Positions 19,673 through 28,893 of a stretch of DNA of 32,372 bases are shown here, piece after piece. The notes beneath the pieces were generated by a model that was given only the letters and a program-made list of their open reading frames with translations, was not told the origin of the DNA and ran no database searches. The stretch lies in IMG/VR virus record IMGVR_UViG_2703718827_000001, positions 1 to 32,372 of that record; one strand, 5' to 3'. Made by a program: the position numbers and the translations under genes. Each line of letters opens with the position of its first letter. Position 1 is the stretch's first letter. The DNA is from a virus (lineage: Duplodnaviria > Heunggongvirae > Uroviricota > Caudoviricetes).

Positions 19673-20254
19673 ATGAATCCTGTAATTTTTATGAAAATCT
19701 TCGGTGAGGTGGATATCTCAAAGTTTTTTATTTCCATTGACCAAAATGAAGATGAACTTGGCTCGGTTTTAAGAGTTCATCTTTTGTCTGAGCGGCTACT
19801 TGATGCATGGATAGCGGCCCATATAAATAAAGAAGATTTGTTTCAAAATTCACCGGGCGAGAAAATAAAGTTCAATCCGAGCTATGGGATGAAACTTGGA
19901 CTCGCAAAGAAGTTAGGAATGCACGCTGAGTTATGTTCTTGCCTGCAAACTATTAACAAAATAAGAAATAACTTTGCTCATCGCTATGATTGCGAACCCC
20001 TAACAGATAAAGACATGCAAGCGATGGAAAATGCACTCAAAGGCGCTCCTCTACCTGCGAAAGTCAGAGCCGTCAGTGAAATTGATTTCAAGATTATTGA
20101 TATCACTGGTAAGGAAATTAAAAGCTACCATTTCAATGATGAAGAAACGCCAAATCGAATCCGCCTGCTTATTATTTTCGCCAGCATAATGGCAAGAATC
20201 ATCACTGTGGTAGTGGATAAACTTAAGACAATTGACCCCTTAGTCTTCAAATAA
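19673..20254 (+). CDS. HEPN-motif protein (candidate abortive-infection / RNase-type defence moron)
   Basis: 193 aa; R-x4-H motif (IRNNFAHRYD, R98 to H103) in a predicted helical context, matching the HEPN Rx4-6H signature; AAGGA RBS; AT-rich; transcribed opposite to the flanking late genes. Confidence 0.55.
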   Translation: MNPVIFMKIFGEVDISKFFISIDQNEDELGSVLRVHLLSERLLDAWIAAHINKEDLFQNSPGEKIKFNPSYGMKLGLAKKLGMHAELCSCLQTINKIRNNFAHRYDCEPLTDKDMQAMENALKGAPLPAKVRAVSEIDFKIIDITGKEIKSYHFNDEETPNRIRLLIIFASIMARIITVVVDKLKTIDPLVFK

Positions 20255-22212: not shown

Positions 22213-22902
22213 TTAATTGACTTTTGCAACACCCTGCTGCGAAAAAGCTGCTTTTTGTTGTGATCGTGTTCTCACTGCTCGCAGTAAAGCATCACTATCA
22301 AGTCGCTCAAATATGGCACACATGGCATTCCAGTAGTCGGCGTAGTTATGGCTCCAGTTATCCGGTTTCACCCCGCATAGCTCAGCAAGTTCCTGCTTCT
22401 GGTATGTTTCCCGCCCGGCCAGCTCAGCTTTAACATCCTGCGCCGCCAGCCAGATTAACGCCTTCAGCCTGTCCATGGTCTTGCCGGCCACCTTCCGGGT
22501 TCCCAGTTGCTCCCTGAACTGGGCCCATGCCCACTGAGTGATCGCCACCTGGTACTCGAAGCGGATATTCTCGCTGTAGTTCCACAGTAGCCATGCCTTC
22601 TGATGGTCTTCCAGCGACAGGACAGCGCGGCGCCAGGATGCGGTCACGAACTCAACCGGCCCCACCAGTGCGATGGATGATCCCTTTGCGCGGGACTGGC
22701 TGCCGCTCATCGCCGGGCCGTCCCGGTTAACTTTACGGCCGGTGATCGGGTCGGTGATTTTCTTCCTCCCCCGGCTGCGCGCCGTCGCGGTGAATTGTGC
22801 GTTCTCAGCGAAAGCTACCAGTTGCCCTTTCGTCTCCCCACTCAAATCTGCAGTCGCCACAATGAGCTGCTGACGTACGTATTCCAGTTGCTGACTGTTC
22901 AT
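22213..22902 (-). CDS. Putative late-gene antiterminator (Q-position protein)
   Basis: 229 aa ORF located between the nin-like genes and the terminator-containing leader upstream of the lysis cassette; call is positional, family not confirmed. Confidence 0.4.
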   Translation of the reverse strand: MNSQQLEYVRQQLIVATADLSGETKGQLVAFAENAQFTATARSRGRKKITDPITGRKVNRDGPAMSGSQSRAKGSSIALVGPVEFVTASWRRAVLSLEDHQKAWLLWNYSENIRFEYQVAITQWAWAQFREQLGTRKVAGKTMDRLKALIWLAAQDVKAELAGRETYQKQELAELCGVKPDNWSHNYADYWNAMCAIFERLDSDALLRAVRTRSQQKAAFSQQGVAKVN

Positions 22903-23011: not shown

Positions 23012-23653
23012 TCATGCTGACTCCTTCTGCTTTGGTCCGCGATATTCACCATACAGAGGTGTTCTTCCTCTTGGCCTGGTATGCCTGTGGGTTACCTTGG
23101 GAGAAAAAAGCGCATCCTCTACATTCATTCCATTTTTTAGTCGACGCTTAATGGATGTTTCTGATACTGAAACGCGAGGGTCCCTTGACCATTCTGTGGC
23201 GGTTTTCGTTTCGCCATTGAAAGTTATGGCTGTGCGTCCTTTTTTTGTGTGCTCAGGGATATGCACTCGAGATCGCATGACATTACACGCTCGGCAAAGC
23301 ACCCTAAGATTTGAGTCCGCATTGTTATCTACAACCTCATCAATGTGATCAATATGCGCGGTTTTCCATGCGACCTTCTTGCCGCATTTTTCGCATGGTG
23401 GAAGTGTTTCTCCATAGCGGTCGTAAACAACTTTTCGGTGCTCATAAACGCAACCATTCGCCATTGATAGTGGGTGATCAGGAATTTTGAGCATTTGATA
23501 TCCCTTCGCATTTTTATGCCTGAATTTCCCTTTACCGTTTTTTGTGAGTTCGTAGGTCCCGTAGCGCATCATTCGGAAGTAGTGCATTTGACAGATACCC
23601 TTTCCTGGGTAGTGTTTGCATTCACGCTCACAACCTTCAACTTTGCATTTCAT
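23012..23653 (-). CDS. HNH endonuclease with N-terminal zinc finger and C-terminal AP2-like DNA-binding region
   Basis: 213 aa; Cys cluster at the N-terminus; HNH core (HIDHIDEVVDNNADSNLRVLCRACN); C-terminal TAITFNGETKTATEWSRDPRVSVSETSIKRRLKNGM resembles AP2-type domains. Confidence 0.75.
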   Translation of the reverse strand: MKCKVEGCERECKHYPGKGICQMHYFRMMRYGTYELTKNGKGKFRHKNAKGYQMLKIPDHPLSMANGCVYEHRKVVYDRYGETLPPCEKCGKKVAWKTAHIDHIDEVVDNNADSNLRVLCRACNVMRSRVHIPEHTKKGRTAITFNGETKTATEWSRDPRVSVSETSIKRRLKNGMNVEDALFSPKVTHRHTRPRGRTPLYGEYRGPKQKESA

Positions 23654-24297: not shown

Positions 24298-24460
24298 GTT
24301 TCCTCCTCGCCGCGAGACGCAGCCATTTCTGATCTACCAGGCGGGCGGTGTAGCCTTTCATAGTCGGGATGTCGGAGGGCTTAATCGCGGGCTTGCGCTG
24401 GCGGCGCGCCGGAACGCGGAAGATTTCGTTTGTGATGACGCGGGAAAGTGGAGTAGACAT
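24290..24460 (-). CDS. Small nin-region ORF (56 aa)
   Basis: Hand-translated ORF (MSTPLSRVITNEIFRVPARRQRKP...) with start overlapping the NinB stop and end overlapping the NinG start; basic composition; below the ORF-track cutoff. Confidence 0.3.
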   Translation of the reverse strand: MSTPLSRVITNEIFRVPARRQRKPAIKPSDIPTMKGYTARLVDQKWLRLAARRKRA

Positions 24461-24915
24461 CAGTCCTCCTGCTTATCGCGCAGCTGCTGGTACTCGCAGC
24501 TCTGCGGGATGGTCAGGTGGCAGCCGATATTCATCGCCCAGGCTTCGACTTTGCACAGGAATATGTACATCTCGCCGGTTTCCAGCTCCGACGTATGGCG
24601 GAGGGATTGTACGGTAGTGACCTCCCCGGACACGACGTCTACCCGGTCTTTGCTTTCGTAGCCGAGATAGGTGTGCTTCATCGCGTCTTTGACCCACTCA
24701 GGCGTAGCGAAGGTCTTACCGCGGGCGATGAGGTACTCGCTGATTTCCGTGTACCACATGTGGCTGAGCGCGTTCTGCGACAAGCTGCGCTTCTCGCGCC
24801 ACGGCTTAACCTGCAGGCGGAAGCATTGCCCGGCGTCCAGCAATGGCTGAATCTGCTGGCCGATGGCCGCGAAGTTGCCGCGATGGAGCTTGATGCCGTC
24901 TACTGGAAGAGTCAT
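24460..24915 (-). CDS. ninB: NinB / Orf-family recombination mediator
   Basis: 151 aa; motif REKRSLSQNALSHMWY parallels the conserved RSLDQNRKLWA region of lambda NinB. Confidence 0.65.
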   Translation of the reverse strand: MTLPVDGIKLHRGNFAAIGQQIQPLLDAGQCFRLQVKPWREKRSLSQNALSHMWYTEISEYLIARGKTFATPEWVKDAMKHTYLGYESKDRVDVVSGEVTTVQSLRHTSELETGEMYIFLCKVEAWAMNIGCHLTIPQSCEYQQLRDKQED

Positions 24916-24995
24916 ACGGCCTCCTTAACGGAAACCGCAGAATACAGAAAATCGCAGGTGCATTTCTGCATCTGTGACAAGGTGAGAAGTTCATA

Positions 24996-25223
24996 TTGTG
25001 GTCGCATTTAAGTCCCCTTAAATGCGCAGAAGTCTTACCGTCGGGCGTTCAACTCCGACGACGGTTAAATTATGGCTGGTTGATTATGGAAAATCAACAT
25101 AAGAGAAAGGCCTTCGAAGAGGCCATTGGTGTCTTGATGCTGGTTTATAAATCTCTACCCGCCGGGATGATTCACAAAATACATTTGCAATTAGTACTTC
25201 AGGGAAGGCTGGATTTGATCTAG
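24996..25223 (+). CDS. Small plus-strand ORF (about 45-75 aa), start uncertain
   Basis: ORF with possible internal start MENQHKRKAF...; preceded by a candidate promoter (TTGTGG-N16-TTAAAT) and palindromes; AT-rich; first gene of a plus-strand islet in the nin region. Confidence 0.25.
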   Translation: MWSHLSPLKCAEVLPSGVQLRRRLNYGWLIMENQHKRKAFEEAIGVLMLVYKSLPAGMIHKIHLQLVLQGRLDLI

Positions 25224-25283
25224 CTTGTTAAACAATCCGTAGATTATGATATCGGGATAAAAAACAGAAGGGATGGCCTGGTT

Positions 25284-25721
25284 ATGAATAATGGGGTGTT
25301 TACTACCGTCATTACTGGTGTTTCAGTGTTTGTGTTGGGTCAGATATTTGTAAAATCCATGCTTGATCCTTACATTTCATTCAAGGAACATTTGGGGATG
25401 GTTTCGGCCATTCTCCTGCGTGAGCAAAATAAAATCCTTAGCATCAATGCGAAAAGCGAAGTAATAAACGAAATCAAACAGGCGTCAGCTTTGCTGTTGT
25501 CAAAATCTAATGCCATACCCTTGTATGGAATGTTGGCTACTTTACGTCTCCTTCCTCGATACAAAGATGTCCTTAAGGCCTCGTGGAATCTGAATCTTAT
25601 TGCGTCTATTTTAGAAGAAGGAAGAAACACCACCCCCAAAGAAACCTATACAACTATTTCTAATTCTCTCAATGCGGTAGGCAGTAAGTTAGGGGTGGTT
25701 GTTACATACAGACCATCTTAG
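25284..25721 (+). CDS. Membrane-anchored protein (moron), unknown function
   Basis: 145 aa; single N-terminal transmembrane helix (VFTTVITGVSVFVLGQIFV) then a predicted helical soluble domain; plus strand, AT-rich. Confidence 0.55.
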   Translation: MNNGVFTTVITGVSVFVLGQIFVKSMLDPYISFKEHLGMVSAILLREQNKILSINAKSEVINEIKQASALLLSKSNAIPLYGMLATLRLLPRYKDVLKASWNLNLIASILEEGRNTTPKETYTTISNSLNAVGSKLGVVVTYRPS

Positions 25722-25722
25722 A

Positions 25723-26340
25723 TCAGCAAATAATATCTTCCTGCTGCGGCGCTGCCGGCAGCGGCATCCAGTGGGTTGGGCTCCATGATGCTCCTGGTAT
25801 AATCCAGCCATCTATATCTGCATCCGGATGCCCAGGGCAATTTGTTGCCCACTTCATTGCATAGCCGCCAGGAGCTGATTGCCATGGCGCAGCAACTATC
25901 ACACCTGTTGATGGGCTTGGCATCCGCTTACTGCAAGCCACCCAACCGTCTGTCAACTCATCACTATTACTTACAGGTTCGGCCTGAAGCATGGCGGCGC
26001 GATAGGCGTTCCAGCCGACAGCTTTTCCGTGTTCAAACGCGCTGTCAAAGTCATCATCAATTTCCATCGCAGCGGGCACAGATACCGGCGCTGGCGGGGC
26101 GGTGTAAAGCGGCGTTACTTCTCGCAGCGGGTCGGCATAAGCATTGCCACTATCGAAGCTGACGTTGTTTTTTGCCCCGCCTCCTGACAGCAACCACGCC
26201 ACCGGCTCCGCTTCGAGCGATGCCAGCGCTATACGCGCCATCTCTTTGACAACGTCACAGTTTTTATTTCCTTCGCAATCATCCATCAAAAGCCAATCGT
26301 CATTGATTATTTCTTTAATCTTATCCCGTGAAAGTTCCAT
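25723..26340 (-). CDS. DUF551-domain protein
   Basis: 205 aa; C-terminal Trp-rich region (DGWVACSKRMP...THWMPLP) typical of DUF551 proteins common in lambdoid early regions. Confidence 0.65.
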   Translation of the reverse strand: MELSRDKIKEIINDDWLLMDDCEGNKNCDVVKEMARIALASLEAEPVAWLLSGGGAKNNVSFDSGNAYADPLREVTPLYTAPPAPVSVPAAMEIDDDFDSAFEHGKAVGWNAYRAAMLQAEPVSNSDELTDGWVACSKRMPSPSTGVIVAAPWQSAPGGYAMKWATNCPGHPDADIDGWIIPGASWSPTHWMPLPAAPQQEDIIC

Positions 26341-26540
26341 TAATTCACCGCCTTAGCTTTACGCTCTGCTTCACTAAAATCCCAGTCAACACGATGCGAT
26401 ATTTCAATTGCCGCCCTAACGGAATGCTCAATCATGATGTCGAGCTTTTGAAGTGTCATGGCCATATTTGGATTTCGAGCCAATATTTCTGCGCGAAGAA
26501 TTTGCCAGTCATTGCATGTTTCAAGTAATGAATTAGCCAT
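26340..26540 (-). CDS. Small hypothetical protein (66 aa)
   Basis: Internal Met start (MANSLLETCNDW...) of the longer track ORF; overlaps neighbours at both ends. Confidence 0.35.
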   Translation of the reverse strand: MANSLLETCNDWQILRAEILARNPNMAMTLQKLDIMIEHSVRAAIEISHRVDWDFSEAERKAKAVN

Positions 26541-26922
26541 TATCTTTACCCCGCGCTCCATATGCAGATAAGCACTCTTCAAATCCAGCCTGATTATCCG
26601 TTTGACCAAAACTGAAGCCATGCTGAAGACCATGACGAAATGCGCTATCTTGCAATTTATCTGCGCTATCGAGCTTCGCTTCCAGTTCAGCGATTCGCTT
26701 CTCTGCGGCTTCCAGCTCATCCAGCAGCGCCAGCACGGTGGCGGGGTTGGCTGCGGCGATAAATGCAGCATCACGCGCTTCGTTTTCACTGAATACCATG
26801 GCTATTTGCTCATGGTTCACGCCGTCAGTGGAGTAAATCTCATCGTCGAACTCAACAGCCCACCGGCATTTCGTCGCCTTCTCCGCTGCTTCACGTAATC
26901 CACGTTTGTCGATGTTGCTCAT
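26533..26922 (-). CDS. ead/Ea22-like protein
   Basis: 129 aa; central coiled-coil motif ATVLALLDELEAAEKRIAELEAKL and overall pattern typical of Ea22-like early proteins. Confidence 0.6.
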   Translation of the reverse strand: MSNIDKRGLREAAEKATKCRWAVEFDDEIYSTDGVNHEQIAMVFSENEARDAAFIAAANPATVLALLDELEAAEKRIAELEAKLDSADKLQDSAFRHGLQHGFSFGQTDNQAGFEECLSAYGARGKDNG

Positions 26923-27116
26923 TGGGCGGCCTCCTCCATGGCTGGGTCTGCTGGTAAAGTCATGTGCGGCACTTCAATCAGTTCTGCCCGAGCATCAGCC
27001 GTGTTAAGCGCCATTAATGCGACGATCCGCTTCTGCTCAGCATCCATTCGTAACGCTACTGTCTTGCCGTTCATATTGAAGAACACCGCAACGTTTTTGA
27101 TATCTTCGATTTTCAT
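26919..27116 (-). CDS. Small hypothetical protein (65 aa)
   Basis: Internal Met start (MKIEDIKNVAVFF...) of the track ORF; coupled to neighbours by 4 nt overlaps. Confidence 0.4.
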   Translation of the reverse strand: MKIEDIKNVAVFFNMNGKTVALRMDAEQKRIVALMALNTADARAELIEVPHMTLPADPAMEEAAQ

Positions 27117-27457
27117 ACCCCTACCCTCCCCCAAACCATCAATACCCTTCTCATCGCCGCGCTGTTGCGGCACTCCTGGCAGATCACGTTTGCCTCTGTA
27201 CGCTGCACCAGCTTCGAATTTCCCTTCGGCATAGCCGGGATTGTTTCTGGTGCGTATTTCATGCCGTAATCGGTCAGCCGATAAAGCCGCTGTCCGTGCT
27301 TGCCTTCGAACTCGATCAGGCCGTCTGCAAACAACGTACTTAACGGGCCGGAAATCTTTTTGGTGGTCATGCCGATCATGCTGGCAATACGAGCACTGTT
27401 CAGGCCCGGGTTGTTACGCAGGGCTGCAAGAATCTGCCCGCGGATTGTTATGGTCAT
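27113..27457 (-). CDS. Winged-helix DNA-binding protein
   Basis: 114 aa; N-terminal wHTH-like region (QILAALRNNPGLNSARIASMIGMTTKKISGPLSTLFADGLIE); C-terminal Cys pair. Confidence 0.5.
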   Translation of the reverse strand: MTITIRGQILAALRNNPGLNSARIASMIGMTTKKISGPLSTLFADGLIEFEGKHGQRLYRLTDYGMKYAPETIPAMPKGNSKLVQRTEANVICQECRNSAAMRRVLMVWGRVGV

Positions 27458-28893
27458 CAGAATCCCCCTTTCTTTTTCGGCTGCTGCTCACGCCCGCGGC
27501 GTTCTGCGGCGGCGGCCTGCTGGTCTGTGTCGTAAATTGCCCCGTTGATCTGATTGCAATAAACCGTTCCGGTACTGCCGTGGCGATTGAGTCGCAGGAT
27601 TAACTCGGTTTCTCCCGGCGGCACGCTGTCATCGAAAGCACCTTCCCGGTGGATACCAACCCAGTAGTCGCAGTCCTGCTCAATCTGTCCTGTGTCGCGG
27701 GAATCGCTCGGTAACGGGCGTTTATTCACTCGCTTCTCCAGTTCGCGGTTGAGCTGGGTCAGCAGCACGACGACGCAGCCAAGCTCTTTAGCGAGGTTCT
27801 TCAACCCTTTGGTGATCATCCCGTAGGCAAGGTCATTACGGTCGGCTTTTTCGGCGGTCATCAGAGTCAGGTAGTCAACCAAAATCATTCCTACGCAGCC
27901 CTTCTCGCGCTTGATTCGGCGGCTTTCGCTAACGATGTGCGCCAGTGACAGGCCAGGAGTATCGTCGATGTACAGCATGTCGATTTCACTCAATCGCCCG
28001 GCGGTGGCGATCGCCTTCTTAAAGTCGCCGTCGTAATCGCCCTGGTACTGGTCATCGGCGTCATCCGTGGCTGGCATGTAAAAAATGCTCGGGTTAACTC
28101 CAGACTTCTGACCAACCAGTTTTTCGAGGATCTGGTCGCCCGGCATTTCGAGGCTGAACATCAGCGCTGGCTTTTTCTCACGAACCGCGCAGTTGATCGC
28201 CATCTGACCGTACAGGGTTGTCTTGCCCATCTTTGGCCTTGCGCCAATCACGAACAGAGAGCCTTTAACCAGACCTTTCGGCGCCAGCAGCCGGTCGAGT
28301 GACGGGATGCCGGTGCTCATGCCGCGCTGTTCGCCTGAAGGGTCAAAGCGTTTCTCCAGATCTGCTACCCAGTCATCCATAACCTCGCCGAACGACCGCA
28401 ACCCACGGCGACTACCGGTTTTTGAATGGTCTGCGAGCTGGGTGAAAATACCCTGAATGGCCTCGTACTTCTGCGTGGCGCTCATGCCATTGCGGGAATA
28501 CAGCAGCTCAGTAGCTTCGGTCAGGCGGCTGATACCGTAGCGCTCCATTGCGGCTTCCCGGACTGACGCAGCGTATGCCACGATGTTTGCAGCGCTGGGA
28601 GTGTTCTTGGCGATCTCCGCCAGGTAAGCAAAGCCACCTACCTGCTCCGCGAGCCCTTTGCCTTCGAGCGCGTCGAACAATGTCAGACCATCGACTGGCT
28701 TGTTGTCGCGGAACATCTGGCGCATCTCGGCAAAGATCAGCTGGTGAGGTCGGCTGTAGAACGATTCAGGCTTGAGCATCGCCAGAACCTTCTGGACTCG
28801 CTCGCTGTTGTCATCATCCAGCAGCAGGCCACCGATAACGCTCTGCTCTGCTTCGAGGTTTTGTGGTACAGCCATGAAATCAGCGGTCATCAC
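27457..28893 (-). CDS. dnaB: Replicative DNA helicase (DnaB family)
   Basis: 478 aa; DnaB N-terminal domain (QNLEAEQSVIGGLLLD), Walker A (GARPKMGKTT) and the conserved RecA-like core. Confidence 0.9.
   Translation of the reverse strand: MMTADFMAVPQNLEAEQSVIGGLLLDDDNSERVQKVLAMLKPESFYSRPHQLIFAEMRQMFRDNKPVDGLTLFDALEGKGLAEQVGGFAYLAEIAKNTPSAANIVAYAASVREAAMERYGISRLTEATELLYSRNGMSATQKYEAIQGIFTQLADHSKTGSRRGLRSFGEVMDDWVADLEKRFDPSGEQRGMSTGIPSLDRLLAPKGLVKGSLFVIGARPKMGKTTLYGQMAINCAVREKKPALMFSLEMPGDQILEKLVGQKSGVNPSIFYMPATDDADDQYQGDYDGDFKKAIATAGRLSEIDMLYIDDTPGLSLAHIVSESRRIKREKGCVGMILVDYLTLMTAEKADRNDLAYGMITKGLKNLAKELGCVVVLLTQLNRELEKRVNKRPLPSDSRDTGQIEQDCDYWVGIHREGAFDDSVPPGETELILRLNRHGSTGTVYCNQINGAIYDTDQQAAAAERRGREQQPKKKGGF

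Follow-up and report, generated by a model that had tools for sequence, protein, structure and literature searches.

The window analysed here, 32,372 nt of the IMG/VR virus record IMGVR_UViG_2703718827_000001, carries the early-right/nin region of a lambdoid prophage, whose genes are read on the minus strand, among them those for NinG and an HNH endonuclease (Table 1). The interval from the ninB start to the DUF551 stop contains a plus-strand open reading frame (ORF) of 145 amino acids (aa), whose stop (25721) is 1 nt from the convergent stop of the DUF551 gene (25723). Between about 24900 and 25800 the GC content is 0.40-0.45, compared to 0.55-0.60 in the flanks. The original prediction, made from the sequence of this window, held that an AT-rich plus-strand segment breaks the co-directional string of early and nin genes, and the ORF map and the GC content bear this out. 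It further assigned to the segment, taken as 24916-25721, two genes, a promoter and two palindromes, and a possible role in exclusion or abortive infection. We show here that the 145-aa gene is real and conserved. The anatomy of an imported one-gene moron that has a short, predicted promoter region of its own and is oriented against the early operon is well supported. The conspicuous palindromes and the promoter-like string are part of a different, very widespread element and not of the cassette of this gene.

The 145-aa gene and its cassette

The 145-aa protein matches the phrog_7512 profile of PHROGs v4 with E = 1.3e-57, residues 1-143 aligning to positions 1-140 of 141. The label of phrog_7512 is 'unknown function', and because the family carries no annotation, membership is silent on what the protein does. 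The same profile is matched by all 37 diverse relatives that were tested (37/37), and no annotated PHROG is among their matches. An exhaustive profile search recovered 1,585 family representatives (50% identity) at E <= 1e-3 and 694 at E <= 1e-10, nearly all of them 135-185 aa long. A word-indexed search returned 21 clusters only, all from Enterobacteriaceae and all labelled 'hypothetical', and a scan of species genomes seeded with alignment A1 found no relatives. Named members come from Nostoc, Hydrogenimonas, Campylobacterota and one Helarchaeota metagenome-assembled genome. The architecture of the family is constant. A median of four residues precedes a single transmembrane (TM) helix with the pattern GVxVFVxGQ, which is followed by a conserved (D/E)P and a helical region of about 110 residues. 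In the 145-aa protein there is one hydrophobic/TM segment, at residues 5-23, hence the single N-terminal helix had been recognized correctly, and the phrog_7512 match confirms the gene itself. The AlphaFold model of the protein is all-helical with a mean predicted local distance difference test score (pLDDT) of 78.5. Searches in Pfam, NCBIfam and the PADLOC models (PADLOC-DB 2.0) gave no match for the 145-aa protein, and sequence and profile searches against the PDB gave nothing meaningful. Ten distant relatives had no significant Pfam match and a single weak, partial PADLOC match (Cyclase, E = 0.002). At relaxed thresholds we found no Pfam, NCBIfam or annotated-PHROG similarity to the superinfection-exclusion families (HK97 gp15/YebO, SieA, SieB, T4 Imm/Sp and Cor), and the 145-aa protein has no similarity to holin PHROGs or Pfam families or to annotated spanin PHROGs. 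Nothing specific on the family, on its accession or on a hotspot in the nin region came up in literature searches.

The unit that travels with the gene comprises about 560 bp, approximately 25159-25721, and is made up of a single gene and its short, predicted promoter region. The islet therefore does not extend from 24916, as had been assumed. About 125 nt upstream of the ATG accompany the gene into contexts that lack the conserved backbone element next to ninB. DNA homology to DUF1367-type loci, in which a DUF1367 gene stands beside the family member (L157, L160 and L162), starts at around 25159, and a relic of the first 11 DUF1367 codons is found here on the minus strand. Since the cassette carries this stub of a former DUF1367 neighbour, it was imported by recombination from a DUF1367-type lambdoid phage, and the relic marks the left joint of the import. 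Upstream of the gene, all close variants have a TAnnAT hexamer exactly 39 nt ahead of the ATG, also in loci without the backbone element, and its variation is confined to positions 3 and 4 (TATGAT, TACGAT, TAAAAT, TACCAT and TAGGAT). It is found 36-44 nt upstream of the ATG in 12 of 12 contexts, which include distant relatives with unalignable upstream DNA. In shuffled controls the chance of such a hexamer was 0.09-0.26 per context, and the product of the per-context values over five mutually unalignable upstream lineages gives a joint chance of about 4e-5. With TATGAT as the candidate -10 hexamer, transcription is predicted to start at about 25257 and to give a leader of about 27 nt. The T-GC-T pattern of the candidate -35 recurs in relatives, which is weak evidence. 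TTGATC (25215-25220) would leave a spacer of 24 nt to TATGAT and was rejected as its -35 for this reason. At the position of the possible Shine-Dalgarno sequence AAGGGA, relatives carry other purine-rich stretches.

The gene is rare. Of 5,426 complete E. coli genomes searched with the DNA of 24916-25722, 12 contain the whole islet and about 1,095 match its first 120-210 nt alone, which places the adjacent backbone element in approximately 20% of these genomes. An identical islet is present in E. coli KL53 (NZ_CP030919, 1781364-1782150) and in NCTC9040. Likewise, the gene is present in 2 of 119 viral contigs that bear the backbone core. Comparison of the ninB/DUF551 junction with related prophages had been named as a check of the original prediction, and it shows that the gene is not ubiquitous. 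Together with the deviant composition and the DUF1367 joint, this rarity upholds the proposal of an oppositely oriented accessory module that was acquired independently. In every lambdoid context the gene is antiparallel to the early operon, and it occupies at least five different slots of the nin region. It lies between the ninB element and DUF551 in the window and in eight Enterobacter loci (65% identity), between DUF1367 and either DUF551 or another gene, between DUF1367 and a 179-aa gene (39% identity), between the gene for the DNA polymerase III theta subunit and a 170-aa gene in Citrobacter (52% identity, 74 nt upstream), and in a slot that lacks NinB. In the Citrobacter and DUF1367-type slots the upstream room is just 74-94 nt. 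The holin and endolysin genes of the related loci lie elsewhere and not at this gene.

The conserved element upstream of ninB

In E. coli prophages without the 145-aa gene, the backbone element occupies the interval from ninB to the early gene that precedes it. Phi80, HK225, HK639 and Enterobacter and Klebsiella phages, all without the gene, also contain this stretch, and in phi80 part of it is annotated 'IR4'. We resolved the element by alignments and by 130 further copies fetched by exact core match. Its core is identical or nearly so in E. coli, Enterobacter, phi80, HK225 and HK639. The stem of hairpin 1, which lies within the core, covaries in L149-type copies. On the minus strand the loop of this hairpin reads GGGA and, together with the adjacent stem, AAGGGGA, a Shine-Dalgarno sequence, and its 3' arm contains the ATG of an upstream ORF (uORF) that leads into ninB. 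This uORF is open (31-34 codons) in 129 of 130 loci and is annotated as coding sequence HK225_060 in HK225. Its ATGA or GTGA overlap with ninB persists in about 120 of 124 loci, although the junction sequence takes three different forms. The peptide varies freely, suggesting translational coupling or control and not a functional peptide. Among 34 distinct variants of hairpin 2 the stem changes are compensatory, and the loop keeps a conserved GTTCA. The -35 of the sigma-70-like site TTGATT-17-CATAAT sits in a palindrome, TTGATT-N6-AATCAA (25080-25097). Both hexamers are invariant in nine diverse copies, the palindrome geometry that fixes the 17-nt spacing recurs over 75 distinct variants, and phi80 has the compensatory form TTGATA...TATCAA. 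The hairpin and T-tract of the terminator are also found in the ABWA45 and HL15 prophages, both of which are without the 145-aa gene. Summed folding energies for hairpin 2 are -316.8 (plus) and -295.7 (minus), so that the strand preference is not clear, and for hairpin 3 they are -347 as plus-strand RNA compared to -278 on the minus strand. A strand choice for both hairpins from G-U asymmetry was dropped because of mixed results, and the whole element folds equally well on both strands. Rfam has no match in 24880-25300, even at E <= 5, and a functional description of the element was not found in the literature searched. The element appears to control ninB via the terminator, the promoter-like palindrome, the covarying hairpins and the translationally coupled 31-codon uORF. 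Thus, the two palindromes that had been taken as signals of the islet belong to the backbone, on the ninB side. The proposed promoter TTGTGG-N16-TTAAAT fares no better: it agrees with the consensus at 7 of 12 positions, lies within hairpin 1 and is not reported by the promoter scan.

The second gene of the presumed islet, a small ORF of 45 aa that starts with MENQHKRK, had been interpreted as a regulatory leader or as a small partner protein. Its equivalent in relatives has 11 (in L153), 17, 23, 31, 34, 44 or 47 codons, it is frameshifted between the near-identical DNAs L149 and L154, and seven loci that retain the 145-aa gene lack its start motif. Only the first codons are conserved, and these are backbone sequence; the ATG (25086) falls in the variable loop of backbone hairpin 3. 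The ORF runs across the minus-strand terminator and is antisense to the DUF1367 relic. No family match was obtained for it in Pfam, PHROGs or PADLOC. The small ORF is a chance ORF that crosses a recombination joint. Of the two-gene islet, the 145-aa gene stands, whereas the small ORF, unconserved in length, frame and presence, does not.

Table 1. Features of the window discussed in the text, with position, strand and the basis on which each was placed.
Feature	Position	Strand	Basis or remark
145-aa gene, single-pass membrane-anchored helical-bundle protein, phrog_7512 family	25284-25721	+	ORF, profile match, TM segment, AlphaFold
Candidate -10 hexamer TATGAT	25245-25250	+	conserved TAnnAT; predicted
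Weak candidate -35 TAGCTT, 18-nt spacer, A/T-rich block ahead	25221-25226	+	best pairing, 7/12 positions
Possible Shine-Dalgarno sequence AAGGGA, ends 10 nt before ATG	25268-25273	+	inferred, read from sequence
Relic of first 11 DUF1367 codons, (M)QMYFVNHPGG*	25155-25190	-	translation compared with L162 MQIDLVKHPGGVF
45-aa small ORF (MENQHKRK start)	25086-25223	+	chance ORF, outside the module
Intrinsic terminator of the early transcript, GGCCTCTTCGAAGGCC then TTTCTCTTAT	25099-25124	-	terminator scan
Sigma-70-like site TTGATT-17-CATAAT	25069-25097	-	promoter scan, 9/12 positions
Hairpin 2, CGTCGG-N10-CCGACG (25039-25060)	25037-25065		covariation
Invariant core, about 100 nt, holds hairpin 1 and TTGTGG-N16-TTAAAT	24936-25034	-	alignments
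Hairpin 1, GCATTTAAG/CTTAAATGC (25004-25025)	25003-25026		within core
31-codon uORF, MRPQYELLTLSQMQKCTCDFLYSAVSVKEAV	24912-25007	-	ORF; stop overlaps ninB start (ATGA)
NinB-type gene, PRK09741/YbcN kind	24460-24915	-	
DUF551 gene	25723-26340	-	
Ead/Ea22 gene	26533-26922	-	
Winged-helix (wHTH) protein gene	27113-27457	-	
DnaB-type helicase gene	27457-28893	-	
Antiterminator Q gene	22213-22902	-	

Genomic neighbourhoods of the family

Beyond lambdoid prophages, a homologue of about 40% identity is found in the P1-like phage D6, between humD and phd/doc, and D6 is the sole carrier among 50,697 deposited phage records. In elements similar to D6 the homologue lies near Tad2-like and dUTPase genes, and in phage-plasmids of 47-50 kb it lies beside a RelE/ParE pair. 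Of 348 plasmid records that also carry a homologue of about this identity, 264 are conjugative; the typical carriers are ColV/IncF plasmids, in which the gene is located between sitABCD and IS1/sopA. On IncF/ColV plasmids (L184 4380-4859 on the minus strand, L182 and L185) the family member forms a divergent pair with the gene for a 159-aa protein, in which an N-terminal TM helix is likewise combined with a helical C-terminal part. This neighbour is not detectably related to the family and was rejected as a paralogue (hhalign probability 0.2%).

Seven independent contexts outside the enterobacteria were inspected, and three of them are by Zorya, Tiamat or AbiJ and GmrSD genes. One distant member lies about 2.5 kb from ZorD (E = 1.8e-195) and ZorC of a Zorya system, one lies 13 nt downstream of a homologue of the Tiamat protein TmtA (E = 1.6e-59), and one is located between AbiJ and GmrSD genes. 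A further context is toxin-antitoxin-rich, as seen in the loci of the Nostoc members, and another one is near deaminase and Tae4 genes. Outside the enterobacteria the family member looks operonic: in a Nostoc locus (L169 5363-6453; a second one is L171 5330-6420) it overlaps the upstream 213-aa gene by 4 nt, and in Hydrogenimonas (L167 4604-7217) it lies between genes of 442 aa and 220 aa. These Nostoc and Hydrogenimonas partners received no family assignment. A conserved partner gene was rejected, since the 213-aa, the 442-aa and 220-aa and a metagenomic 333-aa neighbour are mutually unrelated.

The slot to the right of the ninB-upstream core holds other genes in other prophages. The next early gene usually follows 90-130 nt right of the core, and in a sister prophage (L138) an antiparallel Abi_alpha (PF14337)/PDC-S47 gene occupies the same slot, at about 169-904 nt right of the core. 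Four loci (L041, L079, L094 and L102) have there an antiparallel gene for a three-TM protein of 142-161 aa, and two more (L051 and L059) have antiparallel genes for proteins with TM helix plus coiled coil, of 266 and 330 aa. The slot may thus be a hotspot for cargo or defence genes; defence hotspots have reportedly been described for P2 and P4.

Three further features of the window lie outside this slot. The HNH endonuclease gene (23012-23653, minus strand) is located between the NinG and Q genes and is probably another mobile insertion, because the same layout is found in one Enterobacter locus (L009) and not in most relatives. Directly downstream of the Q gene there is a match to Rfam isrJ (RF01393; 22118-22197, minus strand; 41 bits with a gathering threshold of 37), at the position where a short, early-terminated transcript from the late promoter would be expected. 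A second plus-strand ORF, of 193 aa (19673-20254), is found among minus-strand genes downstream of the lysis region.

Possible roles and comparison with known systems

On balance, we favour the view that the feature is a single-gene moron inside a lambda-like prophage, which would be expressed from the prophage and may encode a protective membrane protein. Morons in the sense of Juhala and Hendrix are extra segments of deviant GC with their own promoter and terminator that are expressed from the prophage (PMC3594210). The deviant GC content described above agrees with this definition, as does the presence in some relatives only, since prophages without the gene share the same flanks. The cassette lies where the replication/DUF551 transcription unit has its 3' end, shortly ahead of the terminator in front of ninB. 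Transcription would start at the predicted promoter of the gene (TATGAT at 25245-25250), and with pR repressed in the lysogen the gene would be expressed there. Once the prophage is induced, the convergent early transcription may run antisense through the gene to the terminator at 25124-25099 and dampen its expression. The layout, together with precedent (PMC3594210), leads us to infer both lysogen expression and this damping. The protein would be inserted in the inner membrane, and its helical bundle would lie in the cytoplasm. Like HK97 gp15 or P22 SieA, it might stop phage genomes from entering at the membrane, or its helix with the G-x6-GQ motif might oligomerise upon infection and collapse the membrane potential, leading to abortive infection. 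That the protein protects the lysogen from other phages at the inner membrane in one of these two ways is a tentative proposal, favoured by the many kinds of mobile element that carry the gene, the defence-gene neighbours in unrelated bacteria, the Abi gene that takes this slot in a sister prophage and the conserved glycine/glutamine face of the membrane anchor. The membrane exclusion or abortive-infection role that was originally suggested is plausible, and a defence or exclusion role would fit the neighbourhoods of the relatives and the Abi_alpha gene. Somewhat more speculative is the idea that phrog_7512 is an unrecognised multi-phylum, single-gene anti-phage effector that lambdoid prophages, P1-like phages, phage-plasmids, IncF plasmids and defence islands would shuttle as a minimal cassette of one promoter and one gene, with the ninB-upstream slot as a defence hotspot like those of P2 and P4.

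Several observations weigh against a protective moron. No known exclusion, abortive-infection, holin or toxin family resembles the protein in Pfam, PHROGs, PADLOC, NCBIfam or PDB, and its predicted fold resembles generic four-helix bundles only. The charge bias that speaks to membrane topology is weak, with 1.93 lysine and arginine residues after the TM helix compared to 1.19 before it, and only weakly favours a cytoplasmic location of the helical C-terminal domain. The candidate -35 TAGCTT is weak, and no plus-strand site reached the threshold of the promoter scan. The terminator scan detected no terminator-like site on the plus strand in 24700-26000; the cassette has no terminator of its own, and one textbook feature of morons is therefore missing. 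The association with defence genes is drawn from a few contexts chosen by hand, with no background rate to set them against, two of the seven distant contexts are uninformative, and the IncF context with sitABCD and IS1 is not a defence island.

It is conceivable that a one-gene moron of this kind is expressed from the prophage and yet encodes a membrane factor unrelated to phage defence that serves the host or the mobile element, acting in envelope-stress tolerance, in colonisation or virulence, or as a post-segregational, addiction-like membrane toxin. The most common plasmid context, that of ColV/IncF virulence plasmids, points in this direction, and so do the addiction modules that adjoin the gene, phd/doc in D6 and RelE/ParE in the phage-plasmids. 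Morons often serve other ends, Lom and Bor being examples (PMC3594210), and no defence model matches the protein. However, several unrelated distant members are directly beside Zorya, Tiamat, AbiJ or GmrSD genes, an Abi_alpha gene is found in the same prophage slot, and an antitoxin-like partner is not conserved, the neighbours being mutually unrelated. We rank protection at the inner membrane above such a function outside defence, which we consider rather unlikely.

A role of the protein in the lytic cycle after induction, be it in lysis timing, in membrane remodelling or as a replication tether, is very improbable. The gene does lie inside the early region, and holins, antiholins and spanins are among the single-TM proteins of phages, but a gene that serves lytic growth would hardly be oriented against the early operon wherever it occurs in lambdoid prophages, missing from about 99% of prophages with the same backbone, confined to D6 among the deposited phage records, and found on conjugative plasmids and in non-phage loci. 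The protein lacks similarity to annotated holin or spanin PHROGs, and its gene lies upstream of ninB and antiparallel, not in the lysis cassette downstream of Q, which sets it apart from the holin/lysis class. The sequence comparisons also essentially exclude a plus-strand operon of two genes with TTGTGG-N16-TTAAAT as promoter, palindromes as control elements and a 45-aa leader peptide or partner. All strings on which this model was built are present in the window (TTGTGG at 24996-25001, TTAAAT at 25018-25023, both palindromes and the small ORF), three diverged lineages each have some ORF from the (T/A)TG ATT AT(G/T) position, and hairpin 3 folds slightly better as plus-strand RNA. But the promoter would be a 7/12 match inside an invariant backbone hairpin, and roughly 1,100 E. 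coli genomes have this element with no plus-strand gene downstream of it. The varying small ORF, with its ATG in a variable hairpin loop and its antisense course over a terminator and over a gene relic, is a poor second gene, and the 74-94 nt upstream of the gene in the Citrobacter and DUF1367-type contexts speak against the model as well.

If the protein does defend against phages, the gene would be a very small single-gene system with about 1,600 representatives that is invisible to Pfam, NCBIfam and PADLOC, and the junction upstream of ninB or DUF1367 would be marked as a cargo hotspot in lambdoid prophages. If there is no phage phenotype, it would be an ordinary hypothetical moron. As a moron that encodes a small membrane protein the feature is of a known kind, and its family is uncharacterised and both larger and wider than the annotation suggests.

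Small single-TM components of defence systems and membrane Abi effectors, such as RexB-type or ZorAB-type membrane partners, share with the 145-aa protein the membrane anchor, and distant family members are found beside Zorya, Tiamat and AbiJ/GmrSD genes. The protein differs from them in that it has no sequence or fold similarity to PADLOC models and no conserved partner, and in the prophage its gene stands alone. With the Abi_alpha (PF14337)/PDC-S47 gene of L138 it has in common exactly the same slot, to the right of the ninB-upstream core, and the antiparallel orientation. The link is by location only, since the Abi_alpha protein has 244 aa, no TM helix and no homology to the 145-aa protein. 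Lambda bor and lom, P22 sieA and lambda sieB are likewise accessory genes within or against lytic units, with their own promoters and with expression in the lysogen, which for the present gene is predicted. Lambda bor is also antiparallel to its surrounding operon. In contrast, the products of bor and lom are outer-membrane proteins unrelated to the 145-aa protein, and SieA and SieB are other membrane proteins that neither PHROGs nor Pfam connects with it. In HK97, superinfection is blocked by gp15, a small moron protein of the inner membrane (PMC3594210). This protein is YebO-like, whereas the 145-aa protein has neither a YebO match nor another Pfam match. The gp15 gene lies in the tail operon and has its own terminator; the 145-aa gene lies antiparallel within the nin region and has none. 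The function of gp15 has been demonstrated, that of the 145-aa protein is a proposal. Both are small proteins with an N-terminal membrane anchor, encoded by one-gene insertions of deviant GC in a lambdoid operon that are patchy among relatives. HK97 gp15 is the best working analogy for how the 145-aa protein might act.

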